A DNA stretch of 64,000 nucleotides, from contig OZ024740.1 of assembly GCA_964016885.1 (NCBI GenBank), positions 93,372,001 to 93,436,000 on the forward strand, read 5' to 3'. Under the pieces are notes generated by a model. It searched no databases and was not told where the DNA came from. It saw nothing but the letters and a program-made list of their open reading frames with translations. The DNA is from Eledone cirrhosa (lineage: Eukaryota). Position numbers and translations under genes: made by a program. This document shows positions 3,886 to 61,423 of this stretch, piece after piece (the stretch's first letter is position 1; each line of letters opens with the position of its first letter).

Positions 3886-3892
<7 letters not shown>

Positions 3893-4384
3893 TAAGTATG
3901 TAACGTACATACATATATGTATACATACGTACAGCAGTATGTATATACATACATACATGCACACATATATATTAATGTATGTATGGGTTAGAGAACATTT
4001 ATTATAATGTTCGGTTTGTTTGTAAAGAAACAGCCCTAATTAAGCCGTACGGTGTTCGCCAACCATCATTGCTTTTTTGTTCAACACTGACAAAGGAACG
4101 ATGTACTACTTTCGAGCTTCTTAACTGTCACCAGCTCCGTATACCCTCCTGTCAGATGATTGAACGTCTGAAAGTATATACTTTCCTTATGCATATTAAC
4201 AGCTGAGCAGACTAATTTGCATATCGAGTGAGTTAGTCGGCCGAGCGCACCGAATACGTTAAATGGAGAAAATGAAATGTAATTTCTCACTCTTAGTACG
4301 GCTGATACTTAAGTGTATGTATGTATAGGTATATACGTATATGTATACAGACGTACAGCAGTATGTATATACATACATACATGC

Positions 4385-4464
<80 letters not shown>

Positions 4465-4650
4465 GTGTGGGGTACCCGAACATTTATTATGATGTTCACT
4501 TTGTTTGTAAACAAACAGCCCGAACTAAGCCACATATAGTGTTCGGCAACATCGTCGCCATGTTGTGCAACACTAACAAATGAACGATGAACTACTTTCG
4601 AGCTTCTTGGCTATCATCAGCACTGTATACCTTCCTGTCAGATGATTGAA
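3886..4650 (-). mobile_element. Retrozyme-like tandem repeat family A (~430-bp unit, degenerate HHRs), ~1.6 units
   Basis: Same sequence family as 8322-9727 and 42562-43020; minus-strand HHR remnants at ~4098-4140 and ~4584-4626; octamer ATTTGCAT at 4215-4222. Confidence 0.8.
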
Positions 4651-4871
4651 TATATGATGATGTTGCACATGTGCAACGAAAGAACTTTGATAGGCTATAT
4701 ATATTTATATCTGTATTTTAACCGTTGGTCAATCATTGATATACGTTGATTGCCAAATAAATTAACTATAGAGATATAAAAGATACAGAAGCGAAAACCA
4801 ACCAAATAGTGAGTGTATTCTGTTTTTATTTCTGGCAATATTATTACAACTATATGACCCTCCCTAAGTAT

Positions 4872-8321: not shown

Positions 8322-8324
<3 letters not shown>

Positions 8325-9616
8325 CGGAATAACATGAAACGAAATTTCATTTCTCACACTTAGTACGGCTGTTACTTAAGTATAAGTATGTATACGTACA
8401 CACATATATGTATACAGACGTACAGTAGTATGTATACATATATATATACATACATGCACACATATATATATATATATGTACGTATGTATTCACCGAACAT
8501 TTATTACAATGCTCGGTGTGTTTGTAAACAAACATCCAGAATTAAGCCGTACACTGTCTACCACCATCGTTGCTCATTTGTTCAACACTGACAAAAGAAC
8601 GCTGTACTAGTTTCAAGCTTATTACCTATCGTCAGCAACGTATACCTTCCTGCCAGATGGTTGAACATCTGAAAGTATATACTTTCTTTATGCATATTAA
8701 CGGCCGAGCAGCCTAATTTGCATATCGAGTGAGATAATCGGCCGGGGTACAGAAAACGTTAAATGGAAAAAATGAAATGAAATTTCATTTCTCACTCTTC
8801 GTACGACTGTTACTTAAATATAGGTATGTATACGTACATACACATATGTATACAGACGTACAGTAGTATGTATATATATATATAGATACATGCACACATA
8901 TATATAAGTACGTATGGATTCACCGAACATATAATATAATGCTCGGTGTGTTTGTAAACCAACATCCCGAATTAAGCCGTACAGTGTCTAGCAACCATCG
9001 TTGCTCATTTGTTCAACACTGACAAAGGAACGATGTACTAGTTTCAAGCTTATTACCTATAGTCAGAAACGTATAGTTTCCTGCCAGATGGTTGAACGTC
9101 TGTGAGTATATACTCCGTTTATCATTTTCGGTACCACGGCCGAGTAACTCACTCGATATGCAAATTAGGCTGCTCAGCCGTTAATATCCAAAAGGAAAGT
9201 ATATAATTTCAGACGTTCAACCATCTGGCAGGAAGGTAAACGTTGCTGATGATAGCTAATAAGCGTGACACTAGTACAGCGTTCATTTGTCAGTGTGAAC
9301 AAATGAGCAACGATGGTTGATATACACTGTACGGCTTAATTCTGGATGTTTGTTTACAAACACACCGAGCATTATAATAAATGTTCGGTGAATACATACG
9401 TATATATATATGTGTGTGGATGTATATATATATATCCTTATGCATATTAACGGCTGAGCAGCCTAATTTGCATATCGAGTGTGTTAATCGGCCGGGGTAT
9501 CGATAAACGGAATTAAAATGAAACGAAATTTCATTTCTCACTCTTAGTACGGCTGTTACTTATATATAAGTACGTATACATACATACATACATATACGTA
9601 TACAGACGTACAGTAG

Positions 9617-9680
<64 letters not shown>

Positions 9681-9722
9681 CTACTGTACGTCTGTATACA
9701 TATATGTATGTACGTATACATA

Positions 9723-9727
<5 letters not shown>
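8322..9727. mobile_element. Retrozyme-like family A array: ~1.8 tandem units followed by inverted and re-inverted segments
   Basis: 431-bp period (8599 vs 9030); 9121-9437 is reverse complement of the unit; HHRs at 8599-8641(-), 9030-9072(-), 9240-9282(+). Confidence 0.85.
8599..8641 (-). ncRNA. Minimal type I hammerhead ribozyme (family A)
   Basis: Minus strand: acgttg-CTGACGA-taggtaataagctt-GAAA-CTAG-TA-cagcgt; palindromic helix III ACTAGT. Confidence 0.75.
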
Positions 9728-26078: not shown

Positions 26079-30100
<4,022 letters not shown>

Positions 30101-31050: not shown

Positions 31051-35019
<3,969 letters not shown>

Positions 35020-37386
35020 AGATAGTGTCTTTAGTTATTGAATTTTTCTGTGTTCAAAGTTCCTTTTGAATTCTATACTTAGCGTCGTTCAGACCACTGG
35101 TATATAAATGAAAACGTATTTATAATATCTGAAATAGATGTAGACATTTCTTGAATGTTTGCTTCATTGGTTGAAAATTAAAATCATTTCCGAGATATTG
35201 ATCATGCAATATCTTTTCTAGAACGCTATGAAATATAAGGAAATAGATTGGTGGAATAAAAAATGTCAGGTTAAACTTCTTATTTTTATTTATTAAATAC
35301 AATCATTTAAGATATGATGGGCAGTCATTTCATTTTCAAAATTATTCGAAGAATTGTATATACGATATACGAATACATGTGTCCATTAACATTTGCAAAA
35401 CGAACTTAAATATATTATTATTTACATGTAATGTATATATTATATTGCCGAAATCGTTATCATTTTGCATAACCTGATTGTGGATTGAGTATATGAAGCT
35501 CGCTGCTATTTTTGAAAAAGTGCTCAATGTGTTCCATAATGATGTATAATGCATTGTACAAAATTCCCAGTTGAATGTCTACTAAAATTAGGTGAAATAA
35601 ATTCAGTGAATTATCTTTTTGTTAACAGTGTATCATTTCGTTTTTTGGGATTAGTTACAATTGATTATTTCTGTTCTTCTAGACAATAAATGTGGACAAT
35701 TGTATGTAGTCACCGATAAGCTATCTTATCATTTTTTCAACATGGTAATAATAATAATTACAACCTGAAATAATATTTTCCATTTCTACACCTAATTGTA
35801 ATATCATTCTAATTCTAGTCTGAATTATATATACATTCCAATGTTACATTATCAACCAAAACAAAGGACTTGTTCTACATTCCAATCGTAATATAGATTC
35901 CCTCAATTGCTTACTGTAAGCGCATCCTTTTTAAACTTGCAAACAAACAATTCAACAAAATAAAATGGTTACATGTGCTGATATTAAGAATCCACAATAT
36001 TGATTTACACTTATTATATTTTCAGGCCATTTCAATCCTTTGATGAATAACATTATTACTATTTCTCTATGTATGCTATGGAAATGGAAGCCCTACCAGA
36101 ACGACACATTTAATTACAGAAATGTAAATGGATTCAAGGTAATATGAATATATAAATGCTGCATTAACACAATAATATTATTACGTAATACATCTTATTC
36201 TTTTTTTATTTTCTATAAAGTCTTTTGCTCAAAACATATAAACCTATATAATACAGCTGAACATGTTGCATGAACCCGCATATAATTGATGTGTAAACTT
36301 AAAATATTGGTGGATAATTGAAGTTTACTCATTAGTTGACGTGGATAGATGTAAGTCCACATAATATTCAAGACTTAAGTGTATTATAAAACAGAAAAGT
36401 TGAATCATTTAAATCGAGTCTTTACTTAACACAGTGAAGGACTTAGTGTTTTATAAAATGTAATATTCTATATACATTATCTTTAGACTTATATAACGAT
36501 ATGCCACTAATTTACTTATTCCTTTGTATTCCACCGGGGAATCTGCAGCTATAACGCAATTATTGTCATGCATTTATGATTATAAATGGGTTCAGCACAC
36601 GTTGCTCTTAAGAGAAAGCATCTCTAACATTAATACAAATACATAACTTCTTTTTTGTGAATTACAACGTAAAGGTGAGGCATTTGAAAGAAACAAATTT
36701 GACAATCAAATATGATATCATAATTGTTTCTACGTTAGGCATAAGGCCAGCAATTACCCAATCATAATATGAAATAATTGACAAAATCCCTAGATTAAAT
36801 ATCGATTCGAACATTTCATTACCCAGAAGTAATTAAAATCGTTTCAAATTAAAACCTAATTGATTTTAAAAAGCAAAATACAAATTGGTAATTAGTTTTT
36901 GATTTAATTATTTCTATCAAACAAAACTTCGAATGAAACTTCAAATATTATTCGCAGGAAATGCCATTAAATCATATTCATTGTTGTTCATTAATTGATC
37001 TTCGTAGTTGATTCAATCTCTGATCTTGTGTTATTCTTTGAGTTTAACAGAACATTCAGCATATAATATGTGGAGCCAATGTGATTGTGTGGAGGAAATC
37101 AGAAATGCAATACATTAAGAATACCTAAACTAAGGGAGGCCCTTAACCTGGAATTTCTATATATCGCACCTACTCATCATTCATAAAAATATGTCACATT
37201 GGGTAACTTAGACCTGCGAGTTAGATTGAACCTATATATATATATATATATATATATAATGTAGGAGGTGAGTTTTATTGTAGTACAATAAAGCAATGCA
37301 GATATCGGATAAGAAGCACTCTACAGTTTGTAGGACTGCAGTATACATAATATATAAGAACAAAAGATGGTTAAAAGAGTTCCATG

Positions 37387-37457
37387 TATTTTATTATGCG
37401 CATTTCAAAAACAAATATCATCATGCAATAATATTTGTGTTTTCATCAGATAAAACA
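37387..37457 (-). ncRNA. Type I hammerhead ribozyme of PLE-1 (inverted arm)
   Basis: Minus strand: tgttttat-CTGATGA-aaacacaaat..atttgttttt-GAAA-TGCGCA-TA-ataaaata; palindromic helix III ATGCGCAT. Confidence 0.82.
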
Positions 37458-38943
37458 GGAAGACATGATATGAAGGTTAAAACACACTTGTGGATAGTTC
37501 AGTTTTAAATCAACATATGAGAAGTAGTTTTAGATTGATGTGTGATATTGGGAAATATATTTATTTAGAGGGGTGGGAGTGGAAAGGATGAAAAAGAGGA
37601 GGAGATGAGAGTAAAAAGTGGAGAGGGAGGTGTATAATGAGGAAGGATGAGATAGGAGGAGAGATGGGTGATAGAGAGAGAGATATAGCTTATATAACTG
37701 AGAAAGATATATTGTTTTACATAGAGAGGTTGAAAACCGTTGGAAGATAATGTATAAATTAAAAGAATTTGAAAATTAACGAAGAGAAAAAAATGTAAAG
37801 TTAAGGTTTGTATATTGAGGGGTGCGATGAAAAAGAAAAATGTTAATATGTATTGAGAATAATATTTAGGGGTTTAATAATATGTGCGATGTTAAGAAAA
37901 GGTTGATATGAATTATTAAAAGGAACAACAGGTTATTTAAGTAAGGAAATATTGTGAGATGACCATGAATGAGTTAGATGAAAGGGAGAACAGAATAATG
38001 ATTTGAGGATGAATAATCTAACGTCAGAAAAATGTATATGTTTACGAAGGATTTTTACAAGGTGATATAGAGTAAGAATGTATGGTATTATGTAATAATT
38101 GATTCTATGTTAGGCAAGAGTGAGAAAAGGTACAGATTAGGGGTTAGACATTAAAAGAAGAAGAGAAGAAAGGGAAGTGATAAATAGGAGCGATGTAGAA
38201 TGAGTAACAAGTATTATAAAATGTATAGTAACCTTTGAAATAAGGTAGAAAGATGGGTATATTTTTAAAAGAAGTGTATATATATATATATATGTGCCTT
38301 TGAGAAAAAAGATTCTAAATTGATAAAGAATTGAATATTAGCTGTATACTTTGTGAAATGTTTTATGGAATTTATGCAAGCAGATAGAAAACAAGTCAGT
38401 GCGTCTATTTATTATAGAATCTAAGTTAGAAATAATGGTAAATTTTTCATTTAGACAGAGATTGCAAATTTGGGGTAGAGAGCTGTTCAAGATGTAGACG
38501 CAGAAGAAACCCTCTTCCAAAAGATGCTATATTTAATGTTTTTGTTTTTCAAGGACCATATGAGGTCTGAGAGAGCCGTGTTGGTTCTTTTAAGTTTGTA
38601 TTTAAAAGACGAATGATGGTTATAAAGACGAGCTTTAAAAGAGGTGGAAGTGGAGCCAAAATAGGTGAAGGAATTGGTGTCAGTTATAACTTTACATTCG
38701 TAAATTAAGTTTTTATCAAGACAATGGTTGTTGAGAGGACATTTATTTTCAATAGGGCAATTGCAATTGCGATTAGAGAGATTATTAATGAGTGACCTAG
38801 TGTTATCTATAGAAGGAATTGCATTGCTTTATTGAACTACAATAAAACTCACCTCCTACATTAACTTGCTCCTTAACAGTTGAGCACTTACTCTCACATT
38901 GGATACCTTTTGATGTTCTTTTACTTCTTTCTTCTTCTACAAC

Positions 38944-41313
38944 ATGGATTATTACAACATAACCAATTCAAGTAAAGACATTCCTATACCTGGTAAATCT
39001 GATTTCACCAAACTTCTGATTGAAAAAACTGACTCCTTCGTAAGAAGACTTAGATGGATAGCCTATTTCTATGACCAGCGCCTAAAAGGGAACTTCTATA
39101 CCATAGAACATAACTTCCTCGATCATCTATTTAATTCTAGAAGAAATCCTCCTTCCAACAAAAATCTAGTGCAATTCGAGGAAGAGTTAACTAAAATTAT
39201 AAAAAATCTTAAATTCAAGAGATACCCTTACAAAGGACAAGAGCACCTTGTAAATCTCAAGAACACAATTTCAAACCTAAATTCCTCAAAAAATGTTTTA
39301 GTCCACTCTGACAAAACCAATAACTTATATGGTATTTCCAACGATAATTATAAGGAACTTAGGAAAAAATATCGTAAAACCAACCATGAACATTTAGAAT
39401 ATATAAACTTTGAAGCCTTTGAGATTATGTTAAAACTTGGCATTGAAAAAAAGACAGAACCATTCCTCCCAAGAACTCCGAGGATAAATCTCAAGGATAA
39501 CAAAAACAATTTTCGCACTGAACTACCTGTTAGATTAATCGCCTCCTCTAAATCAGATCTGGGGGTCGTTAGTAAAGCCATCTTGGATAGGATTATCCCA
39601 CAGGTTCGTTCTAATTGCTCTTCTTTGAACCTAAATTTATGGTTTGGTACTTCTGAAGTGATTAGCTGGTTCAACAAATTGAATAATAAAAACAAACTAA
39701 AATTTGTTCAATTTGATATTGCCAGCTACTATTCTTCTATTTCGCCTTCACTTCTCAATAATGCTCTATCTCTCGCACTTAAATATTCTGACATCACCAC
39801 AGATGAACTTCACATCATTCTCACCGCACGTAAAACCATCCTAGAGTTCAACAACGAATATTAGACCACAGCCGATACCTCTAACAACTTCGACATCACA
39901 GTGCGAGCATCCGATTTATCCCAATTGACAGATTTAATTGGTATCTTTATTTTGAACTCTTTGAGTCGGAAAATTCCTCAACTTCTCGGTGGAATTTATC
40001 GTGACTATGGACTCTTTACTATCTTAAATTGCAACATAGTTAACCTTAATATTATTAAGAACAATATACGTAATCTCTTTAAACAACATAACCTAAAAGT
40101 TGAATTTGATAACAGCATCAAACTAGCTAATTTCTTGGATGTATCTCTTAATCTTGACACTGGCCTATATTACCCTTACCATAAACACAATGATAACCTA
40201 AATTATGTTAATTTTAATCTAACCATCCTATTAATATCAAGAATGCTATAGTTAGTAATATTGGAAAAATAATATCTAACCTATCTTCTAATAAAAACAT
40301 ATTTGATGCTAACGCCAATTACTATATTAACGCGCATTCTAACGCCGGCTATCCTGATAAAATCAAATATAGTGAAGAAACAAATTCTAGAAGAAATTAC
40401 AGTAGAATCATGATCATTCCAATAACTTTAATAAAATACCTAGATACAAAAACATAATCTGGTATAATGCTCCTTTCTCCATCTCTATTAATAACAATAT
40501 TCCTACATTATTCTTTAGTGCCTTAAATAAATGCTTCCCTCCCTCACATATCTATAGTAAAATATTTAACAAACACACTATAACATTTTCCTATTCTACA
40601 TCCTCCAACATTTCCAACATTATCTCTAAACACAACAATAAAATACTAAATACTAAATCTCTTCCTTCTAACACTGAATATCATAATAATAGTACTCCCG
40701 ACGTCATTGTTAACTCTAGGCTAATTTCTGCAAACCCCAATACAACGTCAAACACAACTTCGCTAAATGTTCTTAATCCCATTCTAAATCAAGAAACTAT
40801 TATTCCTATCGCAAATAACTTCTCCAATCCAATTCCTTCTATAGATAAGACTAGGTCACTCATTAATAATCTCTCTAATCGCAATTGCAATTGCCCTATT
40901 AAAAATAAATGTCCTCTCAACAACCATTGTCTTGATAAAAACTTAATTTACGAATGTAAAGTTATAACTGACACCAATTCCTTCACCTATTTTGGCTCCA
41001 CTACCACCTCTTTTAAAGCTCGTCTTTATAACCATCATTCGTCTTTTAAATACAAACTTAAAAGAACCAAAACGGCTCTCTCAGACCTCATATGGTCCTT
41101 GAAAAACAAAAACATTAAATATAGCATCTTTTGGAAGAGGGTTTCTTCTGCGTCTACATCTTGAACAGCTCTCTACCCCAAATTTGCAATCTCTGTCTAA
41201 ATGAAAAATTTACCATTATTTCTGACTTAGATTCTATAATAAATAGACGCACTGACTTGTTTTCTATCTGCTTGCATAAATTCCATAAAACATTTCACAA
41301 AGTATACAGCTAA
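38944..41313 (+). pseudogene. PLE-1 polyprotein: reverse transcriptase plus C-terminal GIY-YIG endonuclease, disrupted
   Basis: RRLRWIAYFY, HSDKTNNLY, FVQFDIASYYSSI, FDITVRASD, GIYRDYG (YRDD mutated), NFLDVSLNL; EN CNCPIKNKCPLNNHC..LIY..TYFGST..FKARLYNH..LSDLIWSLK..CNLCLNEK; stop at 39862-39864 and several frameshifts. Confidence 0.92.
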
Positions 41314-42198
41314 TATTCAATTCTTTATCAATTTAGAATTTTTTTTCTCAAAGGCACATATATATATATATATATATATACACTTCTTTTAAAAATATAC
41401 CCATCTTTCTACCTTATTTCAAAGGTTACTATACATTTTATAATACTTGTTACTCATTCTACATCGCTCCTATTTATCACTTCCCTTTCTTCTCTTCTTC
41501 TTTTAATGTCTAACCCCTAATCTGTACCTTTTCTCACTCTTGCCTAACATAGAATCAATTATTACATAATACCATACATTCTTACTCTATATCACCTTGT
41601 AAAAATCCTTCGTAAACATATACATTTTTCTGACGTTAGATTATTCATCCTCAAATCATTATTCTGTTCTCCCTTTCATCTAACTCATTCATGGTCATCT
41701 CACAATATTTCCTTACTTAAATAACCTGCTGTTCCTTTTAATAATTCATATCAACCTTTTCTTAACATCGCACATATTATTAAACCCCTAAATATTATTC
41801 TCAATACATATTAACATTTTCTTTTTCATCGCACCCCTCAATATACAAACCTTAACTTTACATTTTTTTCTCTTCGTTAATTTTCAAATTCTTTTAATTT
41901 ATACATTATCTTCCAACGGTTTTCAACCTCTCTATGTAAAACAATATATCTTTCTCAGTTATATAAGCTATCTCTCTCTCTCTATCACCCATCTCTCCTC
42001 CTATCTCATCCTTCCTCATTATACTCCTCCCTCTCCACTTTTTACTCTCATCTCCTCCTCTTTTTCATCCTTTCCACTCCCACCACTCTAAATAAATATG
42101 TTTCCCAATATCACACATCAATCTAAAACTACTTCTCATATCTTGATTTAAAACTGAACTATCCACAAGTGTGTTTTAACCTTCATATCATGTCTTCC

Positions 42199-42269
42199 TG
42201 TTTTATCTGATGAAAACACAAATATTATTGCATGATGACATTTGTTTTTGAAATGCACATAATAAAATA
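42199..42269 (+). ncRNA. Type I hammerhead ribozyme of PLE-1 (3' pseudo-LTR)
   Basis: tgttttat-CTGATGA(42207-42213)-aaacacaaat..atttgttttt-GAAA-tgcaca-TA-ataaaata. Confidence 0.8.
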
Positions 42270-42301
42270 CATGGAACTCTTTTAACCATCTTATGTTCTT
42301 A

Positions 42302-43050
<749 letters not shown>

Positions 43051-56465: not shown

Positions 56466-56503
<38 letters not shown>

Positions 56504-56671
56504 GGAATTTATATCTAGTAACATTTATATACACACAGATGCATATCAATGCTAGCAAATATATAGGTTTTGTCTTATTAACATTGTGGTTCAATGCATG
56601 GGGTTGCAGAACAATAATATGAGAGACGTAAAATAAGAACATTATAAAATTAACTTACTTACTAAAAAATC

Positions 56672-56754
56672 ACTTCCAACTAATTAGTTTCTGGAATGGA
56701 GTAAATATATTTTCCGAAGAAACATATAGAAAATCATTCCGTCATCAGGATAGT
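56672..56754 (-). ncRNA. Type I hammerhead ribozyme (family F, inverted copy)
   Basis: Reverse complement of 57121-57203. Confidence 0.7.
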
Positions 56755-57120
56755 CTTTTTCGGTGCAAGTCTCCAGGCATAGCGATGACTCTGGAAACTT
56801 ATTAAAAAAATAATTCCGTGGAAAGGAAATAGCGAAGCGTGGACTGGATTCCTAACCATTGAGAAAATCACTGACACTACGTCTGTGGCAAATTCAAAAA
56901 GAATCAATCACGTGACATCGAGGTCAATCAATGGAAAGCGAGTGGTTAATAAGACAGCGGCCAGCCTACCACCATAGTAGCACTCATTGCCAAATATTGC
57001 TCGACAAATGAATTGGAGATAATTATAAGGAATTTATATCTAGTAACATTTATATACACACAGATGCATATCAATGCTAGCAAATATATAGGTTTTGTCT
57101 TATTAACATTGTGGTAAAAG

Positions 57121-57203
57121 ACTTTCCTGATGACGGAATGATTTTCCATATGTTTCTTCGGAAAATATATTTACTCCATTCCAGAAACTAATTAGTTGGA
57201 AGT
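57121..57203 (+). ncRNA. Type I hammerhead ribozyme (family F)
   Basis: actttc-CTGATGA-cggaatg..(attttcc/ggaaaat)..cattcca-GAAA-CTAATTAG-TT-ggaagt; palindromic helix III ACTAATTAGT. Confidence 0.75.
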
Positions 57204-57644
57204 GATTTTTTAGTAAGTAAGTTAATTTTATAATTTTCTTATTTTACGTCTCTCATATTATTGTTCTGCAACCCCATGCATTGATCCACAATGTTAATAA
57301 GACAAAACCTATATATTTGCTAGCATTGATATGCATCTGTGTGTATATACATGTTACTGGATATAAATTCCTTATAATTATCTCCAATTCATTTGTCGAG
57401 CAATATTTGGCCATGAGTGCTACTATGGTGGTAGGCTGGCCGCTGTCTTATTAACCACTCGCTTTCCAGTGATTGACCTCGATGTCACGTGATTGATTCT
57501 TTTTGAATTTGCCACAGACCTAGAGGCAGTGATTTTCTCAATGGCTAGGAACCAGTCCACGCTTCGCTATTTCCTTTCCACTGAATTATTTTTTTAATAA
57601 GTTTCCAGAGTCCTCGCTATGCCTGGAAACTTGCACGGATAAAG

Positions 57645-57727
57645 ACTTTCCTGATGACGGAATGATTTTCAATATGTTTCTTCGGAAAATATATTTACTC
57701 CATTCCAGAAACTAATTAGTTGGAACT
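57645..57727 (+). ncRNA. Type I hammerhead ribozyme (family F, second tandem copy)
   Basis: Same motif 524 bp downstream. Confidence 0.7.
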
Positions 57728-57783
57728 GATTTTTTAGTAAGTAAGTTAATTTTATAATTTTCTTATTTTACGTCTCTCATATA

Positions 57784-58989: not shown

Positions 58990-61025
58990 GGCGTTAGGGT
59001 ATAATGTTTGGCTGTAATACAGGAAAGTTTTGTGCAATTTATGTTTACAAGCCGAAATTGCCCAGATCTTTCGTTTAAGATGTGGTTTTGGCGTAGAGTA
59101 TTTCCAGAGTCTCAGCGGCGCTGAGGTCACATGCTCTTTTATATCAGTTATACAATCTAGCCCTAGCTAGGATCGCCCAGTGTAACTTATACTGGGTGTG
59201 GTTGTCTTTTAGACTCCAGATATAAGCTGAAAGTGACGTCATATTCCTTCTTAAAGGGTAACGAAAATAATGGGTAAGCATGTAAAGACGCTGCTTGAAT
59301 ATATTGGCAGTTACCCCTTTGTAGGCCCTGGTGTTTCAACCTTACATGTGTAGACAATGTTACTAGAAAGGCATTTCCCGGATAGGGGGCAGTCAACCCG
59401 ATTCCTACAATGACAATTAGTACTAACTAAAGGGTTGCATGTGTTCCTACGGCTAGGTAGTTTAGCTAAATTTGAAGCTGTGATGTTATGTGCAAGGTTA
59501 GAAGTCGTAGAGTAAGAACTTTTAATATAATTCTATTAAAAATGTTACTATATTTATGTGTAGGGGAAAATGCTTCATAATAAGGGAGAGAAAGATTTTA
59601 GCTAATGGTGTGGCCACCTCCATGTTGTATGGTGTGTTATACCATATAATGCGTCGGGATCTATTTCTTCTAGGTCTATTCTCGTACTCTGTATATGCAA
59701 ACTTATCGACAAATTCACTCCGAGCAAGAGCTTCATTGTAATATGTGGAATGGTCGTTGAAAATATGCTCGTTAGTAGATTGACGGGAACGCCTCAAAGA
59801 AACGTTTCTTACAAGATTTTGGGTATGCTGGCAGGATGGTTATAATGCTTACTTATGTAATTAATGCAAGTCATTCGATAAATTGAGGGTAATGTCGAGG
59901 TAATTAACGACCGAGAGGTTGGCATCAACCTGTATGGAGAGGTTGAAGCCTTTAAAGAAGGCTCTGAGTTCTTTTCTGAACCTGTCGTAAGCACGTGGGC
60001 CGCACTTAGTCTTGGTCTAAAAACCAATATCACGGTACAAACCACCGCCCACGTTGGGGGATTCTCCCTTGATAGAGAAAAGAAGGAAAATGCCGATAAG
60101 ATCAGTAACCTCCGCAGAATCGCTGGCGCCCATAGTCACATCGAATGGGGGACTATTAGATTTTTTTTATCCAAATAGAGTCGTCGAAATTAATCACCGA
60201 CTTACGGGCATTGAGGATGACATCAACTTCGAAATCCTTAACCACTGAGAGTGTTTTAGCGAAATCAATAGCTCTAAGAAGAAGTGGTAAAGTAAAGTGT
60301 TGGAGGGGTAGTAATTATTGATGGCGAATTGGATAAAACGGCAATGTTCCATGTTACATATGCCGTTGAACCAATCAATCACCGCGAAATAATTGTTCCA
60401 CAGTGCAAGAGGGGCCAGTCTTCTAATATCAGGTATAACTCTATCAATAATCCTTTTACTAAGTCTACCTAAATCGGAATTCGTAGGTTTAATAAGCTGA
60501 ATAGAGGGGTTGTTTGGAAAATTGGATTTGTGATCCTTCAGGGTAAAGTGGGTAGAAATAGAGTCCAGAGATTCAGTCCGGTCCAGGATGTTGAGATCAG
60601 AGGTGATTTTAAACCCAGCATCGTTGATTTCATTAATGACGCTGCGATTAGTTTTACGATAATCCTTAGTTACAGCATTATGTAGCAGTCGATGGTAAGT
60701 ACTGCGCTCCACTTGATATACAATGCCAGTTTTTTTCGGAATGGACGTGCACGACATTAGAATCCTTAATAGAACGAATTCTATTCTTCAGGTCCTGCTG
60801 GAAGGAATTGCTCCTATTCCGAAATGTGATACTCCGTTTGAGTTCCAAGACATCACTTTCGAAGAGTAGCAATGCTGGGTTACTCGGAGGTTTATTATAG
60901 ATTTTAAACCCAAATGTATCCTGTTTGTTGTCTGCATTTCCCTGATTATCGAAATAAAAGGCACGCCAACGCAACCTTTTAATGAACGCGTCTGTATCAG
61001 GAGTTTTAGGTATGTATCTTTTTAA
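58990..61025 (-). pseudogene. PLE-2 polyprotein remnant (RT plus GIY-YIG), multiply frameshifted
   Basis: FIKRLRWRAFYF, FESDVLEL..FQQDLK, FTLKDHKSNF, FIQFAINNYYPS, FDVTMGASDSAEVTDLIG, GLYRDIG, RRIIWYNTPY, CHCRNRVDCPLSGKCLSSNIVY, LSAYIWSLK. Confidence 0.9.
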
Positions 61026-61423
61026 GGTATGTATTTTATTTACTTTATTCTTAACTCTAAAGCCGAGAATCATTCGGCTAGTTAGAATTCTTGTCTACGA
61101 CTTCAGTTATACCATTTAGGTGGTTTTGTATGTGCTTGCAATTGTTCACCCCGCTCCACATATGATATTCTCTTCGTTTTTTCCGTTCTTTGCCAGAGAA
61201 CGTCTCTATGGACCACCTAAGAAAATATTAGTCTACGACTTCTTTTATACCATAAACGTGGTTTTGTCTTTGCGTGTAATTGTTTTTCACCGCTCCAAAT
61301 AATGACATATTATATTCGTTTTTCCCGTTCTTTGCCAGGGAACGTTTCCACGAACCAAAGTATCGTCTTCCTATCTTCCTCCAGTTGCAACGTTTTTTTT
61401 TTAAATATTCACTTCTTCATTCA

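Follow-up and report, generated by a model that had tools for sequence, protein, structure and literature searches.

The insertion at 8322-9727 of the stretch of Eledone cirrhosa DNA analysed here (64,000 nucleotides, the window) belongs to a repeat, family A, that we read as a retroposon with a predicted self-cutting hammerhead ribozyme, a conserved box and TATA element that would act as its own promoter, and copying into (TA)n by a Penelope-like enzyme. We put the probability of this reading at about 0.6.

The repeat unit and its predicted ribozyme

The family A unit, given as about 430 bp in a preliminary description of this DNA, measures 429 nt and is non-coding. An exact 28-mer from it has 9,512 matches in the 3.0-Gb genome, so at least 9,500 units are present. 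Among the data sets listed as containing the repeat there was no RNA set, and three sequencing runs of unspecified kind show its presence and nothing further. The hammerhead, also noted in that description, is of type I with a palindromic loop 3, and its fold is backed by covariation across sister families: in seven sequences from family A and its sisters, 9 of 13 pairs are changed on both sides and 91% of cells are paired, although the seven are mutually related and the covariation therefore amounts to support rather than proof. An Rfam search at the gathering threshold gave no match and missed the hammerhead. The core is intact in 154 of the 190 copies that have an intact stem II, the monomer RNA folds with a z score of -5.4, and self-cutting is predicted. 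For the helix III of this hammerhead type, the available portion of a published account requires a dimer for cleavage (PMC4209133), which fits tandem sources and the 23 of 137 loci that have at least two intact cores on one strand.

Organization of the insertion and of related loci

The whole insertion at 8322-9727 sits in (TA)n and consists of two head-to-head arms, the right one internally rearranged, with a tailed 3' end at 8322 and a tail-less 3' end near 9727. A complete 429-nt unit, 93% identical to the family consensus, occupies 8324-8762 on the minus strand and ends in the optional 56-nt, Penelope-type 3' tail with its hairpin (8324-8379). Its type I hammerhead (8600-8640, minus strand) has one stem II mismatch, an intact core (CUGACGA at 8635-8629, GAAA and the palindromic loop 3) and a predicted cut at 8605/8604. 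Upstream on the same strand come a TATA-like box (8674-8681) within a palindrome (8671-8686) and the 12-mer TATGCAAATTAG (8713-8724, octamer 8716-8723), which has the same letters as the box of a host U6 gene (L190). If U6 geometry applies, transcription of this unit is predicted to start at about 8646-8651.

The upstream unit (8765-9114, minus strand; consensus 80-427) is 5'-truncated, has no octamer and carries a mutated core (9060-9066); a T6 run (8767-8772, minus strand), possibly a Pol III terminator, closes its tail. Beyond it lie an inverted arm on the plus strand (9119-9435, consensus 1-318), with a 12-mer at 9157-9168 and a hammerhead at 9241-9281 whose GAAA is mutated; a rearranged minus-strand piece (9427-9655, consensus 287-429 then 5-87), whose 12-mer at 9463-9474 is not followed by a hammerhead; and a plus-strand, tail-less 3' end (9642-9727, consensus 287-373) that continues into (TA)n. 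One of the three hammerhead cores in the insertion is intact and two are mutated, as are three of six across the window, and no credible ORF was found within 8322-9727. This copy is a decayed product, not a source copy.

Two further loci bring the family to the three separate places previously counted in the window. The second (3887-4657, minus strand) is an older partial tandem with a 12-mer at 4212-4223 and cores at 4128-4134 (mutated) and 4614-4620; the third (42563-43013, plus strand) joins a short inverted tailed arm to a tail-less unit with a variant box (42678-42689) and an intact core (42767). The octamers reported earlier are all where they were said to be: ATGCAAAT at 9158 on the plus strand, its reverse complement at 4215, 8716 and 9466, and GTGCAAAT at 42679. 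The distance from octamer to hammerhead, put at about 88 nt, comes to 88 nt for the octamer at 9158 and its core at 9246. The statement that each unit has both elements does not hold, since the unit at 8765-9114 lacks the octamer and the octamer at 9466 lies in a piece that ends before the hammerhead.

Elsewhere in the window, another hammerhead family occupies 56500-57780, its copies lying both head-to-head and in tandem (cores at 56748, 57127 and 57651), with no octamer seen. The segments 26300-30000 and 31300-35000 are a duplication with a period of about 5 kb, their corresponding repeats and frames being offset by about 4,970 nt.

A conserved box and TATA-like element across repeat families

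Octamers alone are common (11 in the window, 4 of them in family A). The octamer of family A is part of a 12-mer, TATG(C/G)WAATKAG, whose TTAG form is followed by a hammerhead core at 65-95 nt in 25,423 places genome-wide, against 1 for the reversed pattern; the TGAG form with a core occurs 1,946 times, against 0 in the control. In 800 kb of evenly spaced pieces of the genome, all 17 12-mers lay inside family A or sister families 56-68% alike, with none for the reversed pattern; 14 of the 17 had a TATA-like box at +42-44 and 14 had a core at +85-101.

A hammerhead scan blind to the box, over the same 800 kb and the window, gave 44 matches against 1 in the reversed control; it misses family A because stem II there closes on U-U. 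In six of the 44, from families A2 and C, a same-strand octamer precedes the hammerhead by 99-100 nt. The other hammerhead families scanned had no such octamer, and those beside ORFs of Penelope-like elements (PLEs) had none within 300 nt upstream in the sampled DNA. Across A, Ab, A2 and C the octamer lies 88-100 nt upstream of the hammerhead, and TATGCAAAT is invariant in nine family representatives that share 56-68% identity over 195 nt (six pairs measured), five of which were retrieved via the box, so that only A, A2 and C are unbiased witnesses. A TATA-like box lies at +42-44 in 174 of 195 sites, mostly from family A, against a background of 2%, and at 41-44 nt in seven of the nine representatives.

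Family A copies mismatch the consensus at 1.6% in the octamer, 2.3-2.4% in the ribozyme core and 4.8% and 9.8% in the flanks, a low octamer value that is partly due to AT content and to subfamily differences in the flanks. The preliminary description was to count as refuted if the octamer was no more conserved than its flanks and unit-length transcripts did not exist; the octamer proved the more conserved. None of 44 shared variant positions falls in its 8 nt, which is not significant by itself. Subfamily A3 (45 of 137 loci) has 12-mer position 11 changed and yet has spread; it keeps the TATA-like box, but its palindrome is broken. The perfect palindrome said to follow the octamer is present at 4170, 8671 and 42716 but imperfect behind the octamer at 9158; because A3 breaks it, we rejected it as a conserved element, and it is better read as a TATA box.

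Some other hammerhead families differ upstream. A related 310-bp family without the box forms a very homogeneous hammerhead array (L066:8300-10000), its 3' half related to family C; a U1/U2-type promoter was considered there and rejected, the matrix score of -7.9 being reached by 23% of background windows with a matrix that is itself weak (two of nine leave-one-out scores negative). At L153 and L161:8900-9600, a hammerhead family carries, upstream of the core, what we take to be a CCAAT box and E2F-like sites, which suggests a different captured promoter.

The box matches host type-3 promoters

All five distinct host type-3 promoters (three U6, the best U6atac and the single MRP; L189-L191, L217 and L221) have the 12-mer at -77 to -79 and a TATA box at -30, the order also found in the repeats. 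The 12-mer is absent within 110 nt upstream of nine U1/U2/U12 genes (0/9), and the box matrix scores 16.8-18.9 in the type-3 promoters versus at most 4.5 in those nine. The comparison with U1, U2 and U6 promoters proposed in the preliminary description thus gives a match to U6, U6atac and MRP and none to U1, U2 or U12; its idea of a self-promoting retrozyme survives in outline, the box being kept across families and matching host U6-type promoters, but the box is of the Pol III type-3 class and not of the U1 type ascribed to newt satellite 2. The 12-mer is lacking at that place in 14 further U6 and three further U6atac matches, which we read as retrocopies because most are 5'-damaged or lie in simple repeats, a reading that is partly circular.

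Host U1/U2/U12 genes (L171-L188, L272) have, besides a TATA-like box, AATTA near -90 and a TCAGT-like motif near -57. The family A unit showed no proximal element of the U1/U2 kind, and by inspection the U1/U2 layout does not follow its box. A motif like TTACCTCCCTT recurs between about -230 and -280 in many host genes of both kinds; the distal motif of the host snRNA genes (about -270) has no clear counterpart in family A. We count as a further likeness to type-3 genes the T run that family A has about 310 nt past the predicted start. The repeats have the type-3 proximal box and TATA but not the host distance between them, which is 42-44 nt in the repeats versus 47-49 nt in all five host promoters, a gap of about 5 nt or about half a helical turn. 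In insects, according to the part of the source available, the distance from this element to TATA is closely conserved in Pol III snRNA promoters (PMC1761439).

This spacing difference also favours the strongest alternative, in which the same retrozyme keeps the box for a role in its RNA, where the reverse transcriptase or a host protein would bind it as a hairpin, or as a relic or enhancer-like POU site (the octamer motif is linked to POU proteins), with templates supplied by read-through of host Pol II transcripts. In the RNA of A, A2 and C the box does make up one arm of a hairpin; the T6 is kept as T5 or longer at 90 of 98 internal junctions; and read-through transcription of newt satellite 2 is described in the accessible part of one report (PMC2114352). 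The 5' ends of copies mark no start site either. The counts behind this cover arms whose 3' end could be classed and whose 5' end fell within positions 1-240, which were 40 of 86 arms in the first 54 loci and 84 of 156 in 83 further loci. An apparent pile-up near the predicted start went from 6 of 40 to 4 of 84, and one at the cut site from 6 of 40 to 3 of 84; neither replicated. What speaks against an RNA role is that the sequence is kept and not the pairing: the opposite hairpin arm drifts between families while TATGCAAAT stays unchanged, and pairing is poor in D and E. Nor does such a role predict a 12-mer specific to host type-3 genes with a TATA box at a fixed distance, and relatives of the L066 type have spread without the box. 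We consider this explanation unlikely, though it keeps an appreciable share of the probability. The promoter function on its own, proposed from sequence, is in our judgement somewhat better than an even bet, and we hold it no higher because of the shorter spacing, the T6, the lack of a replicated 5'-end mark and the hairpin arm.

Ends, arms and targets of family A insertions

For 137 family A loci, chosen by an anchor at consensus 243-270 and comprising 242 arms, 3' ends fall at two fixed places, 373 (tail-less, 85 arms) and 429 (tailed, 114 arms), with 43 arms ending otherwise, and 5' ends are scattered. Arms longer than one unit number 110 of 242. Insertions target (TA)n and take the form of partial tandems and of arms in head-to-head orientation. 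Both ends were classifiable in 50 of the 80 head-to-head pairs, and 46 of these combine one tailed with one tail-less end (P 2e-10). The two fixed 3' ends, scattered 5' ends and tailed/tail-less pairing lead us to regard family A as a non-autonomous Penelope-type retroposon; the traits of such elements (partial tandems, inverted 5' arm, single-end tail, (TA)n target) are all present, and insertion into (TA)n by a Penelope-like enzyme, probably of the Hydra clade, is likely.

Direct junctions between family A and Hydra-like coding pieces occur in 2 of 187 loci (each 3-9.5 kb), at different mid-ORF points, and are a hint at the enzyme partner. In the same 187 loci, no autonomous partner with matching ends was found, and no terminus was common to family A and the Hydra-like pieces. 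The rarity of these contacts weighs against a second alternative, that the units are solo pseudo-LTRs (pLTRs) shed by an unseen autonomous PLE with the box in its pLTR promoter. The available text of PMC8557442 gives a tail, inverted arms and insertion into (TA)n as features of PLEs, and retrozymes are related to pLTRs in Xenopus in that of 10.64898/2026.07.22.740005. The arms of family A, however, run from unit to unit, and in the sampled DNA the hammerheads beside PLE ORFs lack the upstream octamer; we think this origin improbable. The satellite label of the preliminary description, with spread of satellite DNA by unequal crossing-over, can cite some long arrays, mainly of sister family A2, but is largely refuted and very improbable, being contradicted by the end pattern: family A is dispersed, most of its loci hold one to three units, their 3' ends are fixed and their 5' ends scattered, and head-to-head inversions occur.

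The window also holds PLE remains. A Hydra-type element at 37350-42306 has RW, DKT and CxCX5C motifs, a broken RT/GIY-YIG frame (38914-41164), a long inverted arm, and hammerheads with a long stem II at 42207 (plus strand) and 37449 (minus strand). A second, diverged Hydra-like coding remnant lies at 59150-61100 (minus strand) and is 37% identical to the first over 147 aa. A Pfam search of these pieces named none, a weak GIY-YIG hit (E 0.008) staying below the cut-off, and a PDB search gave no match. At L045, L397 and L398, family A arms stand head-to-head with short arms from hammerhead-like repeats that are unrelated to them and end in (TA)n; these may be mixed insertions from two templates.

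A model for transcription and copying

Under U6 geometry the predicted start falls at consensus 112-117, just ahead of stem I, and in 11 rows compared TATA+30 lies 7-29 nt upstream of the core. From this start the consensus contains no T4 until the T6 at the tail end. Runs of T5 or longer would stop most Pol III, here before one full unit, so that the T6 conflicts with a unit-length Pol III RNA. Copies contain the promoter and extend across the cut site, so a terminated RNA of about 310 nt could not have served as their template; that would have to be RNA from read-through, either uncut or cut and circularised. Within the promoter reading, we lean modestly towards Pol III with rare read-through over Pol II.

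In the cycle we envision, host factors of U6-type genes would bind the box, and transcription would start about 10-16 nt ahead of the core. RNA running past the T6 into the next unit would form a dimer, which could be cut at two hammerheads to release a 429-nt monomer that now holds the promoter sequence and would be circularised. A borrowed enzyme would then nick both (TA)n strands and prime at two internal sites, one per arm, and copying round the circle would restore to each new copy a promoter ahead of its own start. Because an external promoter is not part of the RNA that it drives, retroposons normally cannot use one; circles cut from read-through RNA would solve this and would explain how an upstream promoter is inherited. 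More broadly, and tentatively, at a little under even odds, a radiation of cephalopod retrozymes may have captured a host U6-type external promoter, with read-through RNA cut into promoter-containing circles, a 5-nt shorter spacing that may retune the promoter, and a dimeric Penelope enzyme inserting two arms from two fixed start sites.

Relation to known systems

Retrozymes, their PLE link and the snRNA-type promoter of the newt repeat are already published. Metazoan non-LTR retrozymes, as the accessible sections of two papers describe them (PMC7229834; 10.64898/2026.07.22.740005), likewise have 300-450-nt non-coding units, a type I hammerhead with a short palindromic helix III, monomers to multimers, highly paired RNA and a proposed PLE dependence. 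Family A shares the type I hammerhead and the short, dispersed, non-coding unit in monomers to multimers; it differs in its U6-type box, two fixed 3' ends and one-tail-per-insertion rule, and its cleavage and circles are predictions from sequence. Those sections name no promoter element; in the part of PMC7229834 covered, 'promoter' is used only for T7, and 'octamer' and 'octopus' are absent. By title and abstract opening, in the openly accessible literature, we found no earlier report of such a promoter in retrozymes or cephalopods, and 'U6 promoter' is absent among the literature matches listed for this topic.

Newt satellite 2 is reportedly driven by an octamer and a PSE, a U1/U2-type proximal element, through Pol II. 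As read here, family A resembles it in being a hammerhead repeat whose internal snRNA-type promoter lies ahead of the cut site; the available text of PMC2220036, citing Coats et al. 1994, gives the newt promoter as snRNA-type for Pol II. The upstream octamer is shared, but family A lacks the U1/U2-type proximal element; compared by description only, its box matches Pol III type-3 genes, not U1/U2/U12, and is followed by TATA. Hydra-clade PLEs, in the portions available (PMC8557442; PMC11167929), share partial tandems, a 5'-inverted arm, an optional one-end tail, two internal priming sites and (TA)n targets; family A, unlike them, has no ORF, a 56-nt tail versus 30-40 nt, and a U6-type box versus a pLTR Pol II promoter.

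Beyond the newt precedent, the box, predicted start window and putative terminator of family A offer specific, mutable targets for studying how animal retrozymes are transcribed. If the promoter reading is true, family A would provide a second case, independent of the newt one, of a hammerhead repeat with an snRNA-type promoter, here of the other polymerase class. The strict one-tail-per-insertion rule constrains Penelope priming in vivo. The analysis also defines, incidentally, the U6-type promoter of Eledone cirrhosa (12-mer at -78, TATA at -30), which is useful for guide-RNA expression.
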